A stretch of DNA of 64,000 nt, taken from Planctomycetota bacterium (GTDB lineage Bacteria; Planctomycetota; SZUA-567; H5-PLA8). The translations under genes were made by a program, and so were the position numbers. Shown here one piece after another: positions 55,416 to 64,000 of the stretch (the stretch's first letter is position 1; the number at the start of each line of letters is the position of its first letter). Location: contig JBBRPR010000039.1 in assembly GCA_038227875.1 (NCBI GenBank), positions 17,349 to 81,348 on the forward strand. The letters are read 5' to 3'. The notes under the pieces were generated by a model. The model saw only the letters and a program-made list of their open reading frames with translations, did no database searches and was not told where the DNA came from.

Positions 55416-58307
55416 CTACTCGTGTCCAAGCCACTCGGCGGGGATGGGGACTTTCTTGCCGTCTTTTTGTTTCATCAGCAGGTTCATGCCGTAAGGTCCG
55501 CCGCCGTTAAACCATTCCAGCCAGATGCGGTGCGGGCCGGCTTTCAAGTCGATGGCGGCTTCCACTTCTTTCATGCCGTGCGGGCCGTCGTTGTCGATCA
55601 ATTTCTCGCCGTCGATGAAGAACCGTGAGCCATCGTCGGAGGTGAGGCTGAAGGCGTACTTGTCGTCGGCGGGAATATTGATCACGCCGCGGTAGACGGC
55701 GGAAAACGCGCCAGCCAGCGGCCAGCCGTGCAGGATTCGCTCGGCGGTGGGCGGCGGCGTGGCGCCGAAAGCGAGCGTCGGTTCCAGGCGCGCGATGGTC
55801 GGCGTGTCGTCGTCGGTGGCGTACATCGGCAGCTGATCGAAGTACTCGCCGATCACGCCGGGCTTCATCGCGGTCGTTGGCGGGCCCTTCGGCGGAATCT
55901 TGAAATGCAGGCCGTGTTCGGAATCCCAGAAGACGCCGGAGACCACGGCATTGGTGTTGCACGCGTTCTGCAGCTTGATCAGCAGGGAGCCGGCGACTTC
56001 GAATTCCAGCCACGAGCCATTGCCAAAATCGCCGACGTCCGTCTCATAGAGCATCTCGTCGCCGCTGAAGAACTGAATGTGATCCTTGCGGCCAAGCTTG
56101 TCGAAGTCGAGGAAGTACATCGACAGATGGTTGACGATGCTCTTTGACGCGCGGAGATCAATCAACACTTCACTGCCGGAATATTCGCAGGCGCCGAGAC
56201 GCGGGCCTTTGCCTTCCGGATCTTCAAGCTCGCGCGGCTCTTCACCCTGATTCCAGACGCAGTGGTCGGCGGCCGTCGTGAGCGAGGCGATGTACGGCGG
56301 CAATTTCTGAAGGTGCTGGCCGCCGCCCCCCTTGTTGAAGAGGACGTAGCCGTCCTTGCCCATCTCGCGCTTCCAGTTGCCGCCGCGCTTGTCGTTACGA
56401 CCGATGAATTTCACGTAGGGCTTGGCCGCTTCGCGGGGTGCATCGGCCGGACGGCGCGATTCGGGATCAACGCCGGTGACTTCCAGCGGATCGTAGCAGA
56501 GCCACTTGTCGCTGAGATACTCCTTGCTTTCACCCTTGGGCTTGATTGAGCAGGTCAGCCCCGTGGCGGCGCCGTAGGTGTAATATTCGACGTAAATGCG
56601 GTGCAACCCGGTGCTCAGATCGATCTGCTCCCAGAGTTCCTGAAGCTTGTGGTCGCCGTCGTTGTTGATCAGCAGTTCGCCGTCGAGATAGAGGCGCGCG
56701 CCGTTTTCCGATTCGACGAAGAACGTGTAGAGGCCCTGCTTTTCGATTTTGACGTAGCCGGTGAAGTTGGCGGCGCAGGCGTTGCCGAAGGGCCAGTCGT
56801 GGATTCCCTGCCCGGGCGGCGCGGGCGTTGATGCGCCGAAGGCAAGACTCGGCTGCGGGCGCGTCAGTTGCGGCGTGTCTTCGATGGCGGCGTAGGTGTC
56901 GACGGTGTCGAAGAATTCCGCCCAGACGCCCGGCTTCAAGCTCGAAGCGGCTGACTTCATCGGTCCCTTGAGCGGCGCGCGGCGCGTGAATTTGTCGGAT
57001 TCGGCGCCGTCGTCGTAGCCTTCGATCTCCACCGCGTGGAAGGAATCGTTGGCGGTACTGGCGATGCCCCTAAGCGCGACGACTTTGACTTTCTGGCGCG
57101 CGAAGCGGACTTCCTGCCAGCTCTGCGATTCCCGTTTGCTGTTGTCCTGAACTTTCTTGAAGTTCTTGCCGTCGGGCGAGACCGAGAGGATGTAGCGGAA
57201 CGACCGCGGGTCCTTATCCCAGAGCAGGAAACGGACGCGGGTGAGCTCGCGGGGTTCCTTCAACGTGATGAGAAACTGTTCCTTCGGCTCGTTGTTGTTG
57301 GTCGTGGCGTAGCCCAGGCCCGGATCGTAGTTGTCGGCGATGCCGTCGATCAGCACTTCCGGTTTCTGTCCGCCCGTGGCGACCGCGCCGTCGCTGGCCA
57401 GGAGCAGATTGTGGGTGCTGCGCGGGTGCTTCTTCTGAAATTCCGGAACCAATGGACCGGCCACGCGGGAACCCGGCGTGCCTGGCGTGTTCGGATTGGC
57501 AGGATCCCCGCCATCCACGCGAAGCTGCGCGACATCGCCGCCGCCGCTGCCGGATTTGTATTTCTTGATCAGCAGCCCCGCGATCAGGCACAGCAACACT
57601 GCGATCACGCCAATCAGGCCCATCACAATTTTCTTGTGCGGCAGGCCCGGCGCGGGAAGTTCTGCGCCGTCGAGTTCGTCTTCATCGTAGTCGTCGAGAT
57701 CGTCCCCGTCTGCATCGGCATCCGCTGTCGCGACGGGCTTTTGAACCGGAGCCGGAGCCGGCCTGGGTTCCGGAACTTTGACTGGGGCCGGCGCAGCGAC
57801 CGGCTCTGGAGCCGTGGTGACCAGCGCTGACGGTGAGGGCGTGGGTGTGACTTCGATGTCGTTTTCCAGCTCCGCGTCGTCGATCTCCGGCTTGAGCGGC
57901 AGCGGCGATTTTGAGATGCGCGCCGAGATGGGGCTCGGCCCGCGCGGTGAAGACTGCGGCGCGGAGCGCGTCGAGATGCGTTTGGGCTGCTGCTCCACCG
58001 TCGCCGTCGGCGCGCTCGATACATGCGAAGCCGTCCGACCGGAAATGCGCTTGGGACCGGCTGCGCTGGGAGGCGGATTGGGATTCGACGAGAGCGTCCG
58101 ATGAAGCGGTGGCGGATTGGAACGCGGTGGCGGGACGGAAGACGTCGGCCGTTTGGCGCCGACCGGCGCGTGAGCCCCCGGATGCGGTGCGTGTGCGGGA
58201 GGCGTGGCTTTCACCGGCGGCACGCCACGCTGAGGCACGCCAGGTCGAGCTGGCGGCACTCCGGGCTTCTTGGGCATGCGCGACTTCGGGTCCATTGCGT
58301 GACTCAC
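55416..58307 (-). CDS. Membrane-anchored protein: Pro-rich N-terminus, TM, discoidin (F5/8 C) and two PA14 domains
   Basis: TM IVMGLIGVIAVLLCLIAGLLI; LLWDKDPRSFRY..SVSPDG...HAVEIE; PA14 motifs YTFFVESENGARLYLDGELLINNDG and SLTSDDGSRFFIDGEKLIDNDGPH. Confidence 0.8.
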   Translation of the reverse strand: MSHAMDPKSRMPKKPGVPPARPGVPQRGVPPVKATPPAHAPHPGAHAPVGAKRPTSSVPPPRSNPPPLHRTLSSNPNPPPSAAGPKRISGRTASHVSSAPTATVEQQPKRISTRSAPQSSPRGPSPISARISKSPLPLKPEIDDAELENDIEVTPTPSPSALVTTAPEPVAAPAPVKVPEPRPAPAPVQKPVATADADADGDDLDDYDEDELDGAELPAPGLPHKKIVMGLIGVIAVLLCLIAGLLIKKYKSGSGGGDVAQLRVDGGDPANPNTPGTPGSRVAGPLVPEFQKKHPRSTHNLLLASDGAVATGGQKPEVLIDGIADNYDPGLGYATTNNNEPKEQFLITLKEPRELTRVRFLLWDKDPRSFRYILSVSPDGKNFKKVQDNSKRESQSWQEVRFARQKVKVVALRGIASTANDSFHAVEIEGYDDGAESDKFTRRAPLKGPMKSAASSLKPGVWAEFFDTVDTYAAIEDTPQLTRPQPSLAFGASTPAPPGQGIHDWPFGNACAANFTGYVKIEKQGLYTFFVESENGARLYLDGELLINNDGDHKLQELWEQIDLSTGLHRIYVEYYTYGAATGLTCSIKPKGESKEYLSDKWLCYDPLEVTGVDPESRRPADAPREAAKPYVKFIGRNDKRGGNWKREMGKDGYVLFNKGGGGQHLQKLPPYIASLTTAADHCVWNQGEEPRELEDPEGKGPRLGACEYSGSEVLIDLRASKSIVNHLSMYFLDFDKLGRKDHIQFFSGDEMLYETDVGDFGNGSWLEFEVAGSLLIKLQNACNTNAVVSGVFWDSEHGLHFKIPPKGPPTTAMKPGVIGEYFDQLPMYATDDDTPTIARLEPTLAFGATPPPTAERILHGWPLAGAFSAVYRGVINIPADDKYAFSLTSDDGSRFFIDGEKLIDNDGPHGMKEVEAAIDLKAGPHRIWLEWFNGGGPYGMNLLMKQKDGKKVPIPAEWLGHE

Positions 58308-60703: not shown

Positions 60704-60739
60704 ACCCCTCGCGCTTTAGCGCGCCGAGTGAAGCGACAC

Positions 60740-61180
60740 ATGGCCATACCACTTACATATTCCTTCCGCAGCGTCGCCATCCGCAAGGGCTCTTCGGCGA
60801 TGGCCGTCGGCGGAATTGCCCTAGTGGTCGTGGTGCTGGTGGCGATGCTCTCGCTGGCCGCGGGAATCAAGCACGCGGTAGCGTCTTCGGGAAACCCCAA
60901 CAACATCATCGTGCTGCGCAAAGGGGCTGACGCGGAATTGCAGAGCCTCGTCTCGCGCGACGCCACGCGCGTGCTGCGCGAAATGCCGTTTATTGCCGCC
61001 GACTCCGAGAACCGCCCGCTGTTGATTCCTGAAAGCGTAATCATCCTGTCGCGGACCAAGCTGGGCGGCGGTGACACGAATGTCTCTGTTCGTGGCACGC
61101 CGGTTGATTCCCGCCGCGTCCGCCCCGACGTGGCGCTGACGAAAGGGCGCTGGTTCACGCCGGGAACCAACGAAGCATGA
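60740..61180 (+). pseudogene. ABC transporter permease (MacB/FtsX-like), truncated by insertion
   Basis: MAIPLTYSFRSV...GGIALVVVVLVAMLSL...GNPNNIIVLRKGA...NVSVRG...GRWFTPGTNEA* ends inside the periplasmic domain with no C-terminal TMs; composition turns AT-richer immediately after. Confidence 0.85.
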
Positions 61181-61361
61181 AGAATAACGGCGTAACTCGT
61201 TGAACGACGGCGTTATTGGTGGGAAGTGATTGGATCTCGCTGCCCTTCCGCTCGCGAAACCGAGGTCCGGGCCGGGTAAATGTGGGTGTTTTGATGGGGT
61301 TGTCGAAGATTTCTAGTTCAACCTCAGTGATATAATAAGGTATACCGATATAGATTATGGT

Positions 61362-61727
61362 TTAACCCGCGTCGATCTGTCGTGCTGGTAGTACACCGCC
61401 TCCTCTCCGACGAACCAAAAGGCGGTCAATAAGTATCTCCACAGCCTCTTTATCGGCATCTTGTAAGTCTTTCATTTTGTTGACGATACGTAGTGAATTT
61501 CTATCGATTGCAATAGGTCCTGAATTCTCTCCGGTCAATAGCCAATCGACGGTCACGCCCAATGAACGGGCAAGCGCCGTAAGGTTTTTATGGTTCGGAT
61601 CTTTCTTCCCGCTCTCCCACTCATTCACAGCCTTTGTCGACACACCGACTTGGGCCGCGAGAGCGGTCTGCGTTAGTCCCAGAGAGTTGCGAGATTTCCG
61701 CAACCTCTCCGGAAGAGAGTTACCCAT
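61362..61727 (-). CDS. XRE-family HTH repressor (CI-like)
   Basis: LPERLRKSRNSLGLTQTALAAQVGVSTKAVNEWESGKKDP...LARSLGVTVDWLLTG; ATG 61727 with GGAGGA RBS. Confidence 0.92.
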   Translation of the reverse strand: MGNSLPERLRKSRNSLGLTQTALAAQVGVSTKAVNEWESGKKDPNHKNLTALARSLGVTVDWLLTGENSGPIAIDRNSLRIVNKMKDLQDADKEAVEILIDRLLVRRRGGGVLPARQIDAG

Positions 61728-61797
61728 GATTCCTCCCCCAATCCAATCAAAGTAGCCTAATCCCAATGAAAAGCTACTGATTCCAATTTTTATTGGC

Positions 61798-61875
61798 TTG
61801 ACCAACATAACCAATGGGTTATAACCCATAGGACTAAAGGACTTTCTTAGGTTGTCCTAGGAACCTAGGACAACC
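61798..61875. promoter_or_regulatory. Divergent switch region: rightward promoter and operator palindromes
   Basis: TTGACC(61798)-16-TATAAC; perfect palindrome ATGGGTTATAACCCAT (61814-61829) over the -10; GGTTGTCCTAGG-AA-CCTAGGACAACC (61850-61875). Confidence 0.7.
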
Positions 61876-61893
61876 CCACCCAGCGAGGTGCAC

Positions 61894-64000
61894 ATGATTG
61901 ATCTAACGAAGCTCACCTTCATCTTAAACTCGCTTGACCTTCGGGTTACGGAAACAGCCAAAGCAATTGGTATTTCCCAATCGCACTTAAGCAACATACT
62001 GATTGGCCGAGACAAGCCGTCTTTAGACGTTGTGCAGCGGCTTGAAAATAATTTTAAGCATGCGTGGTTGGAGCGGCGCGGAGAAACAGTTCCACCAGAA
62101 GTTCAACGCATTGTCTACGAACTCCTCTACCCGCCCGCGCCATTCAACCCGTTCGATGGACCGCGTAAGCCCGGCCGCCCAAGCAAATCAAAAAACGACG
62201 CGGCCCCGGAAGCGCCGGGGCTTGAGCCCAACCGAAAACCCGAAGGCGCTGCGGCGCAGATGGAGAGCTATGGCAACGAAACTTCCGGCGAAGGTCAGGA
62301 AGCAACTGGCAGCGATCTTGAAACGGCATCCGGAAACCACACCGGCGATGGTCCGCGCGCATCTGAATCCTCGCGACGCGTTCGGACAGCCGCTTCGCAA
62401 AGTGAAAATGAGCGATTGGGAAATCGCGCGATCCGAATGGCGGCGCAAGATAGCAGCCAAGGCTTACAGGGAAGCTGTGGCCGCTGGACTTCTGAAGACA
62501 TCAATGACGTCTACCGTGCCGCGCAAATCCGCGCGCGGCTGACGGATGAAGTTCCTAACGTCACGCGACACCGCAATCAATTCTATGAATGTATCCGCGC
62601 GGAACTGCCGGGATGGCTGAAAGGCTCAACCACTAACAACGCGATCAATAAAATTCTCGGTCGCAAGCTCAACGTCAAGCTTCGCGCGCGCAGCGCCGAC
62701 GCAGTGAAGACGCAGGGCAAGGCGATGATCGCTGCGTACACCCTGCGCATCGCCGCGAAGATCGAAAGTGATGGCCACGCCAAAGGCGCATACTCCTACC
62801 GCGCGTGGATGGACCTGCGCGCGACGCTGCTTTCGATTTGGGATCAGCCCGAAGCGAAGGCGAAGATCTTCGAAATCTACGGGCAGGAAATTTCCTACCC
62901 GACCTTTGAGCGCATCTTCCGCGCCGAGTTCGGTGGCGTATCGCCGATGGAACGGGCGGCGAAGGTCTATGCGGCAGAGACCCTTGGCTACGAGCCGGAG
63001 TACGCGGGCCAAACGATCCAGATGGACGGCACGGAATTCCCGGTCGACGTCGCGACCGCATGGGGACGTTCGCGCGCCAACGGCAACGTTGCCCAGATCG
63101 CGGCGTTCATCATCGACACCGCGTCACTCAAAACATGGATGCATGTCGAAGGCAATACCTCGGAAGTTTACCTCTGGAATCCGATCATCCGAAAATTCTT
63201 GGAGAGCACGAATTACTCTCCCGAGTTTTTCGTCACGGACGAAGGCGGTCGCAGCATCAACTCACTGCGCCATCAAAAGCCCGGCCAGCCACTCACGATG
63301 GACAATGCTATCCGACTGCTCACGGCCATCGGAACGCGGCCACACACGCACACGCCTGGACTCCCGCGCGCGAAGGGCACCGTCGAGTGCGGCGCGGTGA
63401 AGGCGGGGAAGTCCACGCTGAAGCGAGTGCTCTCCGGACGCTTCGTCAAGGCCCTGCTTTCTGAAATCAAAAACCTTCCCCCGTCGTACCGCTGGGTGGA
63501 GACCGAGAGCGAATGGCGCGGCATCATCGCCGAGGTTGAAGCCTCACTGAACGCGCGCACCGTCAAGCGTATCGGCGATGGCACCTTCACCCGCAACAGC
63601 GCGTGGGACCTTCCAGAGTATCAGGCGCGCCGCGCTGAGCGCGCGCTCGTTGCCGACTGGCGCGACCGCTGGGAGACGATTGCAACGCGCGGCTTCGCGA
63701 TGCAAGTCATCGGCGAAAACAAACTCTACTGGAAAGGCGCGCGCGCCGAACTCCGCGCGCCGCTCGGTCACACGGTCAAGGAAGGATCGGTCGCGATCCT
63801 CTTTCCCGGTGGCCTGCGCGCCGGTGATGACCAACACGGCGACGATCTGCTGCGCGGCGTGATCATCGAACAGACCAACGGCCAGCCCCAGTATCACCAG
63901 ATCGAGGCGCTCAAGGTTTCTAAGAGCTTCCTCGGGTTTGAAAACGACCGGCCCAAGATCAGCGAGCACCCAGTCGCCAAACCGCAGACGGACAAACAGC
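61894..64000 (+). CDS. Cro-like HTH fused to MuA-like DDE transposase (partial; >702 codons, runs off window)
   Basis: Manual translation, no stop: MIDLTKL...VTETAKAIGISQSHLSNILIGRDKPSLDVVQRL (HTH); catalytic QTIQMD(378)GT, FFVTD(449)EG, PRAKGTVE(498); GAGGTG RBS. Confidence 0.85.
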   Translation, partial: MIDLTKLTFILNSLDLRVTETAKAIGISQSHLSNILIGRDKPSLDVVQRLENNFKHAWLERRGETVPPEVQRIVYELLYPPAPFNPFDGPRKPGRPSKSKNDAAPEAPGLEPNRKPEGAAAQMESYGNETSGEGQEATGSDLETASGNHTGDGPRASESSRRVRTAASQSENERLGNRAIRMAAQDSSQGLQGSCGRWTSEDINDVYRAAQIRARLTDEVPNVTRHRNQFYECIRAELPGWLKGSTTNNAINKILGRKLNVKLRARSADAVKTQGKAMIAAYTLRIAAKIESDGHAKGAYSYRAWMDLRATLLSIWDQPEAKAKIFEIYGQEISYPTFERIFRAEFGGVSPMERAAKVYAAETLGYEPEYAGQTIQMDGTEFPVDVATAWGRSRANGNVAQIAAFIIDTASLKTWMHVEGNTSEVYLWNPIIRKFLESTNYSPEFFVTDEGGRSINSLRHQKPGQPLTMDNAIRLLTAIGTRPHTHTPGLPRAKGTVECGAVKAGKSTLKRVLSGRFVKALLSEIKNLPPSYRWVETESEWRGIIAEVEASLNARTVKRIGDGTFTRNSAWDLPEYQARRAERALVADWRDRWETIATRGFAMQVIGENKLYWKGARAELRAPLGHTVKEGSVAILFPGGLRAGDDQHGDDLLRGVIIEQTNGQPQYHQIEALKVSKSFLGFENDRPKISEHPVAKPQTDKQ
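62190..62225 (+). promoter_or_regulatory. Candidate -1 programmed ribosomal frameshift signal
   Basis: In-phase A_AAA_AAC (62190-62196), 6-nt spacer, stem GCCCCGG-AAGCG-CCGGGGC (62203-62221), -1 frame TGA at 62223-62225. Confidence 0.6.
62270..62542 (+). CDS. Small basic protein (90 aa) overprinted in +1 frame within the transposase ORF
   Basis: GGAGAG RBS then ATG; MATKLPAKVRKQLAAILKRHPETTPAMVRAHL...WEIARSEWRRKIAAKAYREAVAAGLL; codons in this frame look more gene-like than the main frame here. Confidence 0.55.
   Translation: MATKLPAKVRKQLAAILKRHPETTPAMVRAHLNPRDAFGQPLRKVKMSDWEIARSEWRRKIAAKAYREAVAAGLLKTSMTSTVPRKSARG

Follow-up and report, generated by a model that had tools for sequence, protein, structure and literature searches.

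Bacteriophage Mu is the textbook example of a transposase that needs a third DNA site, the enhancer/operator, before its ends can be paired. The similarity between the Mu repressor and transposase was reportedly placed in the N-termini of the two proteins, judging from the titles of Harshey 1985 and Mizuuchi 1986. In the available parts of the Mu literature, MuA is described as carrying an N-terminal enhancer/operator-binding domain, I-alpha, with the enhancer overlapping the O1-O3 operator region (PMC3362531, PMC3145075), and repressor and transposase are stated to share sequence homology (PMC3820752). Here we describe a gene at the end of a 64,000-nucleotide (nt) stretch of DNA (hereafter the window) from a Planctomycetota bacterium (contig JBBRPR010000039.1, positions 17,349 to 81,348), which encodes, in a single reading frame, an XRE/Cro-type helix-turn-helix (HTH) head, a basic patch, a low-complexity linker and a predicted DDE transposase core. 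The element that carries it is a Mu-like transposable prophage, in which the transposase is the first gene of the rightward early operon and is divergent from an XRE-type repressor. We consider it reasonably probable that the XRE head and its AT-hook-like patch are an independent counterpart of the MuA enhancer/operator-binding domain.

Beyond Mu, according to a 2021 survey the enhancer-binding domain 'so far appears specific to Mu', the Leptospira and B3-type TnpA proteins lack it, and the Leptospira transposable prophages have a 6 bp target duplication (PMC8705779). A lambda CI-like repressor at the position of Mu c is already known from hankyphage, according to an excerpt of PMC12135933. 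No description of an XRE-headed Mu-like transposase, or of Mu-like prophages of Planctomycetes, was found in full-text searches of an open-access library.

A stop-free frame from ATG 61894 to the window end had been noticed in an earlier, sequence-only reading of this DNA, and it was borne out: the frame is open from GTG 61888 or ATG 61894 to 63999, and translation together with a listing of open reading frames (ORFs) that allows open ends gives 702 codons from ATG 61894 onward. The ATG is preferred over the GTG because the homologues begin MID…, MIP… or MIS…; GAGG sits 5 nt 5' of it. Default ORF lists omit frames that run off the source sequence, and such a list probably dropped this one from the ORF track, so that the frame probably looked unannotated. 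The window ends together with its contig (G000:C39), the last 141 nt of which are shared at 100% identity by contig G000:C92, where the transposase frame continues for 33 codons before a stop. The C-terminus encoded there (…RRLRAWHESGVHAPAALKQGTTNEPVSAALGNFA) agrees with that of the closest homologue, P0003, and the complete transposase is about 735 amino acids (aa) long, provided that the C39-C92 join is right. It is present as a single copy in the genome. When the 154 codons between HTH and core were shuffled, the frame was stop-free in 20 of 5000 trials, and the remaining five frames over this stretch contain 1-10 stops each; the open frame is therefore more than chance.

The fusion is conserved among relatives. 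Three close homologues recovered by a word-indexed search, with identities of about 72-74% (P0003), 64% and 45%, all have an N-terminal HTH in frame with the core, and their linkers vary in length and are mutually unalignable. A HMMER search over 1.84 billion protein cluster representatives yielded 64 proteins at E <= 1e-3, 24 of them at E <= 1e-30. The family alignment (n=55) comprises 53 of these representatives, the query and P0004; the 11 left out are fragments or HTH-only proteins (P0027, P0044, P0046, P0048, P0050, P0060, P0062 and P0064-P0067). Within the alignment, 31 members have an N-terminal stretch of 138-371 residues ahead of the core, which in every case aligns to the HTH region, a count that is circular in that the HTH-region profile was built from the same 31 long members; Pfam HTH_3 independently matches 22 of the 55. 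In the remaining 24 the sequence starts at the core or close to it. P0013 was called from an internal start within a 789-codon frame in locus L006 and P0009 from one within the frame in locus L005, the 90%-identity clusters of P0008 and P0016 also contain members of 733 and 699 aa, and the core-start database forms that were checked (several of the 24) read as gene-calling artefacts. Six-frame searches (the window's genome counted in each) gave matches in 7 of 401 genomes of the phylum, all from one family, and in 6 of 17 genomes of that family at E <= 1e-20, and searches of public viral, genome and metagenome contigs with the family alignment returned no related DNA.

Six DNA loci could be compared: the window, L005, L006, L007, L015 and L012, with core identity down to 26% (L012). 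The frame between HTH and core is stop-free in all six, over 154, 239, 208, 344, 118 and 85 codons, respectively, and in every locus one or more stops interrupt each of the five alternative frames; stop-free shuffles per 5000 numbered 20, 11, 15, 2, 122 and 438 in the same order. The linkers are unalignable yet the frame is open in these kin genomes, and thus the open frame was kept while the sequence turned over. The sequence-only reading had proposed to look for homologous transposases that start downstream (at the equivalent of ATG 62437) with a stop after the HTH; this comparison came out for the fusion, one open frame being kept in 6/6 loci. We conclude that the fusion is genuine, with HTH, linker and core in one polypeptide, and hold this structural part of the reading with high confidence.

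Two departures from the full-length form were seen. P0044, a stand-alone 108-aa HTH on a long contig, was considered as a natural split form and rejected, as no transposase lies behind it; it is the stub of a deleted element. In this other Planctomycetota record (L022:5143-6327) an S24-type repressor lies opposite the transposase-head stub, which databases name an XRE-family regulator, and unrelated genes follow. Separately, the transposase of genome G328 (L007, G328:C1:2013756-2015046) is broken near its C-terminus: beyond residue 624 the match is found in a different frame, and the main frame leads into an Arg-rich tail.

The XRE/Cro-type HTH recognized by eye is confirmed by Pfam HTH_3 (PF01381), which matches residues 12-54 with E 3.8e-7 and 30.5 bits against a cut-off of 23, and the PDB profile matches of the head are CylR2, C.BclI, HipB and 434 repressor/Cro (E 0.009-0.2). 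A conserved extension (PPEV…YELLYPPAPFNPFDG) spans residues 61-100 and ends in PRKPGRPSKSK (residues 90-100), which contains the GRP motif at residues 94-96. The AT-hook consensus is a minor-groove-binding R-G-R-P core with basic flanks, and the AT-hook likeness suggested earlier holds at the motif level. A basic patch (>= 5 K/R in 12 residues) is present in 20 of the 31 long members and GRP within residues 61-140 in 12 of them; one member reads KRGRGRPAKK. The low-complexity linker of about 100 aa is likewise real: about residues 101-197 contain 89% disorder-promoting residues, and across the family these average 83% in the tether versus 68% in the body. Identity to P0003 is 43% over residues 1-60, 85% over 61-100 and 51%, with 17 gaps, over 101-197, versus 77% (198-370), 89% (371-520) and 76% (521-702) in the body. 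By this comparison the recognition part of the head (1-60) is the fastest-evolving folded segment, as would be expected of a specificity determinant tied to immunity. The N-terminus is of the HTH_3 type and carries a GRP patch, unlike that of MuA, where the head is the winged-helix HTH_Tnp_Mu_1 domain I-alpha, homologous to the repressor; BLAST found no alignment between the head and MuA residues 1-101 (I-alpha).

Downstream of the linker, the body consists of a conserved part without a recognized fold (residues 198-370; no DNA-binding fold was found there by Pfam, PHROGs or PDB profile search), a DDE region (about 370-540) and a C-terminal region. The three catalytic residues proposed in the sequence-only reading, D378, D449 and E498, are invariant in the 55-sequence alignment, along with D408. 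In a one-by-one scan that covered 50 of the 55 members, the MuA family profile phrog_310 was reached at E <= 0.01 by the window protein P0001 (E 3.1e-4, residues 319-498 on profile positions 216-387) and by 10 of 49 other members, the best with 2e-9 and on profile positions ~198-497, the catalytic domain; 7 of the 55 reach E <= 1e-3, and MuA itself scores 8.6e-199. In an hhalign comparison of the catalytic slices (172 columns, E 0.16, not significant), D378, D408, D449 and E498 fall on MuA D269, D294, D336 and E392, all of which are invariant in an alignment of 22 MuA sequences, and LNAR falls on FNAR of MuA. Several ESM-Atlas neighbour clusters carrying Mu-transpos_C/DDE_2 score 0.91, which we take as a lead only. 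We conclude from these profile comparisons that the core is probably a very divergent member of the MuA branch of DDE transposases, with a putative RNase H-like fold.

The prophage interrupts a MacB/FtsX-type permease gene, the 5' part of which lies immediately to its left and obtains its stop codon TGA from the first bases of the element (TG being the element's first dinucleotide). The permease frame resumes as ...AVIGSSLSRRL... on G000:C66:44359-45073, minus strand; with its halves on two contigs, the permease is presumably inactive in the source genome. At the left junction host AACGAAGCA is followed by element TGAAGAATAACGGCGTA… (TGAAG...), and at the right junction on C66 element …TACGCCGTTGCTTTACA (ending in TTTACA) is followed by host AGCAGTGATT. 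This single insertion is compatible with a target duplication of either 4 or 5 bp (AAGCA if the last A is host); the right ends of the G066 and G221 elements, sought to fix this length, were not found. The termini are TG (61178) and CA (C66:45075-45074), with AACGGCGTA-type repeats twice per end. The copies at the left end, AACGGCGTA and GACGGCGTT, are ~20 bp apart, and the right end on C66, as the reverse complement, reads TGTAAAGCAACGGCGTA, identical to the left at 13 of 17 positions, in the same register and with a second copy. The exact 9-mer AACGGCGTA occurs 64 times in 9.3 Mb, both strands counted. The element thus has, like Mu, TG...CA termini, several repeats per end, here putative binding sites, and a short target duplication. 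G+C falls from ~0.63 to 0.44-0.51 between 61150 and 62200.

Contig C92 continues the early operon after the transposase with genes for proteins of 223 aa, 219 aa and 170 aa, the last a second XRE protein, all in one orientation, and then with about ten more genes without assignment, of which one matches phrog_4786 (Table 1). These are followed by genes for a large terminase, a portal, a Mu-F-like protein, an S78 prohead protease, an HK97-type capsid, a cement protein and a head-tail connector. The sequence-only reading had left the choice between prophage and transposon to the DNA beyond the window, and because virion genes lie on the continuing contig, the element is identified as a prophage and a Tn7-like transposon is rejected. 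The ends, the target duplication and every early and head gene remain intact; the assembled part is at least 27 kb long, and the tail end is absent from the assembly. The portal is only 26-30% identical to that of any deposited phage, and tblastn of the transposase against 50,697 phage records gave no match. The 170-aa XRE protein is another candidate binder of the control-region palindromes described below, and the phrog_4786 gene of the early region may be auxiliary.

The repressor, which lacks an S24 peptidase domain in the window, probably starts at ATG 61727 (121 aa), with GGAGGA just upstream, leaving a control region of 166 bp between repressor and transposase. The repressors compared at relatives' loci L017, L018, L019, L020, L021 and L022 and in the window come in two forms: a short one of 121-132 aa, HTH only (window and G066:C1), and a long one of 249-284 aa with a C-terminal extension (G402, G328, G066:C2, G221 and the L022 remnant). 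The extension, read by eye, resembles a LexA/S24-type peptidase, and the short form would not be self-cleaving.

The control region contains two palindromes, P1 and P2. P1 overlaps a promoter-like TTGACC-N16-TATAAC (61798-61825) read by hand; a sigma-70 consensus scan returned no promoter in the repressor-transposase intergenic region and did not list this one. The 12-mer half of P2 is unique in the 9.3-Mb genome. At 120 bp from the left terminus, just past the 3' end of the repressor gene, there is a degenerate P2 copy, the 33-nt unit of which is 79% complementary to 61846-61878. The palindrome type GGTTGTC-N12-GACAACC recurs in relative L015, and L006 and L015 have palindromes of their own directly upstream of the transposase start. 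ORF listing and Pfam revealed no Ner-like gene between repressor and transposase in the window. In four relatives, strong palindromes (14-20 bp arms, one to four copies) are found within the linker-coding DNA itself, from +288 to ~+835 nt: GGTTGTCGAATGTTTCTTCGACAACC twice in the linker of G402, and a third time past the 3' end of the repressor gene, a palindrome of the same type as P2 of the window; GTTTTCCGCCAGCGTGGCGGAAAAC twice in G328; GGAGTTTTCCCCCAGCGTGCGGGAAAACTCC four times in G066; and GGGGTTTTCTTCA…TGAAGAAAACCCC once in G221. The peptide FSxSVxEN recurs in the linkers because these palindromes are translated. We attempted to assign the palindromes to a binding protein by covariation over the six loci, and no pattern emerged.

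Like MuA, the protein described here serves a tailed transposable phage as its transposase, and its gene adjoins that of a divergent repressor. The parts also come in the same order, with an N-terminal DNA-binding head (predicted here), a flexible link, a conserved block and a DDE core; both reach phrog_310, and the four invariant acidic residues are in register, albeit in a non-significant alignment. The link differs in length, a tether of 85-344 residues here versus ~10-25 in MuA. Like Mu Ner and lambdoid Cro, the head is an HTH of ~60-100 aa encoded right after the early promoter/operator region and opposite the repressor gene; unlike them, it is covalently joined to a transposase and belongs to Pfam HTH_3, with no similarity to Mu Ner (BLAST E 0.46). 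The sequence-only reading had set this fusion against Mu, where ner and A are encoded separately. That contrast is correct but incomplete, as MuA already has its own N-terminal enhancer/operator-binding domain. Because I-alpha already binds the enhancer/operator, an operator-binding transposase would be known Mu logic from a different domain and no new principle; the logic is that of Mu, and the difference lies in the part carrying it out. With TnpA of other transposable prophages (Leptospira WETA1/INNN139, B3-type), as portrayed in the survey cited above, the family shares the character of a divergent MuA-like DDE transposase with many insertion sites and short variable duplications; unlike those proteins, it has an extra, predicted N-terminal DNA-binding module, of a fold class other than that of Mu.

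In the mechanism that we propose, the body would cut and join at the TG…CA ends, and the conserved 198-370 region would read the AACGGCG end repeats, as I-beta/gamma of MuA does. The HTH and the AT-hook-like arm would bind element-specific palindromes, P1 and/or P2 (61811-61875) and the P2 copy at 61298-61323, and the head would in this way recruit or restrain the transposase at the control region, taking the role of MuA I-alpha. The length of the tether could allow a single molecule to stay bound at a control-region site with its body placed on an end. Since a separate ner gene is missing from the repressor-transposase interval, the head may in addition dampen the promoter from which it is itself expressed. 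Taken by itself, the enhancer/operator role of the head is an even call on the present comparisons.

Several observations weigh against this reading. With regard to the core, DDE_2 (PF02914), Mu-transpos_C (PF09299) and HTH_Tnp_Mu are matched by none of the 55 members at E <= 0.01, and the window protein matches no Mu Pfam model even at E <= 0.1; unlike MuA, then, this family matches no Mu Pfam model, and the earlier description as 'divergent MuA-like' stands weakly, through the phrog_310 matches of 11 of 50 members. The rve model is matched by 1 of the 55 (E 1.6e-4). Whole-length hhalign against MuA or the 22-sequence MuA alignment is not significant (probability 0.2-0.4%, E 0.16-0.38 across the hhalign comparisons), a narrow MuA HMM finds nothing in the family below E 0.03, and a search of PDB sequences with the family profile returned no MuA chain at E <= 10, the PDB profile matches to the core being retroviral integrase cores only (E 0.07-0.1). 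With regard to the head, its likeness to the HTH of its own repressor is only the generic XRE one (31% over 32 aa, pairwise E 0.006), so that it is no clear paralogue, whereas in Mu the two are clear homologues. Across the six loci the palindrome type tracks neither transposase HTH class, nor repressor recognition helix, nor end motif. Unlike in Mu, there is, besides the absence of a separate ner gene, no recognizable MuB-type ATPase downstream: the 223- and 219-aa proteins match no Pfam, PHROG or NCBIfam model, BLAST comparisons with MuB end at E values of 0.082 and 9.9, and ESM-Atlas neighbours provide no more than weak leads. A Walker-B-like ...CIAFDHAG... is present in the 219-aa protein, which has no P-loop lysine and aligns weakly to MuB around Walker B (E 0.082); this protein may be a degenerate MuB counterpart. 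Finally, third-position G+C is low in HTH and linker (0.43-0.63) versus 0.7-0.9 in the core, the codon-position pattern of 62299-62434 is slightly better in an alternative frame, and the six DNA loci all come from one bacterial family and are not independent.

The N-terminal HTH could instead be the end-binding domain for the terminal AACGGCG repeats, as in IS30- and IS3-type elements, with no operator or enhancer role. An N-terminal HTH that reads the terminal repeats is the rule among DDE transposases, and the failure to identify a DNA-binding fold in residues 198-370 leaves room for such a function of the head. We nevertheless regard this as unlikely. The HTH diverges much faster than the rest (43% versus 77-89% identity with P0003). 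The G221 element has an unrelated HTH class, yet its putative left end keeps the same register (TG, 6 nt, AACGGCG, and 21 bp further in another copy); for G221 and the other relatives, the left ends were read by eye only. Moreover, a disordered tether of 85-344 residues carries the HTH, and a conserved block of ~170 aa occupies the place of the MuA end-binding domains.

Two further alternatives assign a function to the linker region. It is quite unlikely that this region is a regulatory device, either setting the ratio of a short Ner-like regulator to the full-length protein (by frameshift, stalling or cleavage) or housing an enhancer bound by the head; if true, the device in either form would be an 'inverse IS3' arrangement in a phage. 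Very unlikely, in our judgement, is the specific case of two products, a full-length HTH-transposase and an HTH-only Ner/Cro-like regulator of ~110 aa made by -1 frameshifting at A_AAA_AAC and ending at TGA 62223, for which the equivalent in relatives would be stalling or cleavage at strong linker-RNA hairpins. The heptamer has the required frame and is followed, after 5 nt, by an 8-bp GC-rich stem (-17.5 kcal/mol), and the -1 frame stops 9 codons on. This hairpin is more stable than 99% of random 34-mers of the genome and 99% of post-heptamer sequences, but relative to the GC-rich sequence around it, it does not stand out (z -1.30, with 20 of 200 dinucleotide shuffles folding at least as well). 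In-frame heptamers occur at codons 88-99 in 4 of the 6 loci; however, none is present at that position in L005/L019 and L006/L020, they occur per linker at about the chance rate, and they are favoured because the basic patch uses Lys codons. The linker palindromes of relatives, as RNA, fold with -37 to -51 kcal/mol and z -6 to -8 at +288 to +430 nt in three of four elements, and no Rfam match was obtained. An N-terminal HTH joined to a DDE core, with a slippery heptamer and hairpin at the junction in the window, recalls OrfA-OrfAB of IS3/IS911; unlike in IS3, where the fusion needs a frameshift, here the fusion is read in the zero frame and the short product would require a shift, and the element is a phage and not an insertion sequence.

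It is highly improbable that the open frame is incidental, reflecting a small Cro/Ner-like gene followed by a transposase with a downstream start (e.g. ATG 62437) or a decaying prophage: gene callers did use internal starts (in 24 of 55 representatives the start is at the core or close to it), the codon-position G+C of the linker is atypical and an alternative-frame ORF of 90 aa at 62270-62542 is protein-like, but 6/6 loci keep this very frame open across unalignable linkers with all others closed, at least two internal-start calls cut the conserved core or sit inside a longer open frame, the alternative ORF is without a counterpart in relatives or elsewhere in the genome, ATG 62437 has no Shine-Dalgarno-like sequence in front of it, and the ends, duplication, early and head genes are intact.

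The 90-aa ORF itself (62270-62542, plus strand; MATKLPAKVRKQLAAILKRH...) overlaps the linker, and its codon-position G+C is slightly better than that of the main frame. It was rejected as a true coding frame or overlapping gene, having no counterpart in the loci of seven relatives (L005-L010 and L012), in the fetched proteins or in the rest of the genome, and is taken to be a chance ORF. Just outside the element, the ORF listing shows a 963-aa frame (55416-58307, minus strand) with an extended Pro-rich region at the N-terminus, a membrane-like segment and, at the C-terminus, two domains that resemble each other. The coordinates of the features are collected in Table 1.

Table 1. Features of the prophage, its transposase gene and the surrounding DNA. 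Positions without a prefix refer to the window; prefixed positions refer to other loci.
Feature	Position	Strand	Description
Host permease, 5' part (150 aa)	60728..61180	+	MacB/FtsX-type, Pfam MacB_PCD E 2.3e-8
Left target-site duplication copy	61173..61177	.	AGCA (61174-61177) if the element ends ...CA; AAGCA if ...AC
Element left end	61178..61220	+	terminal TG, 17-nt imperfect terminal inverted repeat 61178-61194, two end motifs
Degenerate P2 copy, GGTTGTC-N12-TTCAACC	61298..61323	.	2 mismatches to GGTTGTC-N12-GACAACC
XRE-type repressor gene	61362..61829	-	HTH_3 E 1.2e-14; Phage_CI_repr E 7e-5; PHROG repressor families to E 1e-17
Palindrome P1, CCAATGGGTTA/TAACCCATAGG	61811..61832	.	11-nt arms, 91% complementary
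Palindrome P2, GGTTGTCCTAGG-AA-CCTAGGACAACC	61850..61875	.	perfect 12-bp arms; ends 18 nt upstream of the start codon
N-terminal DNA-binding module (predicted)	61894..62193	+	residues 1-100: XRE HTH 12-54, PPEV...YELLYPP helix, GRP patch 90-100
Candidate -1 frameshift signal	62190..62225	+	in-frame A_AAA_AAC 62190-62196, 5-nt spacer, hairpin 62202-62222, -1 stop TGA 62223-62225
Low-complexity linker	62194..62484	+	residues 101-197; unconserved, family-variable length
Transposase body	62485..63999	+	residues 198-702, plus 33 residues on C92
Acidic residues	D378 63025-63027; D408 63115-63117; D449 63238-63240; E498 63385-63387	+	invariant columns
223-aa gene	L003:18928-19599	-	directly after the transposase; synteny kept in L005, L006, L007
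219-aa gene	L003:18272-18931	-	after the 223-aa gene; synteny kept in L005, L006, L007
XRE-type HTH protein, 170 aa	L003:17614-18126	-	early operon, downstream of the transposase
Prophage early-region gene	L003:13513-13965	-	phrog_4786, labelled 'cysteine dioxygenase', E 7.5e-51
Linker palindromes in relatives	L005:1122-1659; L007:369-429; L015:1286-1369 and 45-80; L006:3442-3485		

The family amounts to 64 representatives in 1.84 billion protein clusters and, among the genomes searched, is confined to one bacterial family. Its core has no Pfam model, and gene callers often truncate its members or label them 'XRE-family regulator'; transposable prophages of this group are therefore easily missed. 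Should the XRE head of the transposase bind the palindromes of the control region, immunity and transposition would have become coupled at least twice, through unrelated folds, and these prophages would provide a second, simpler system for asking why such coupling is needed.

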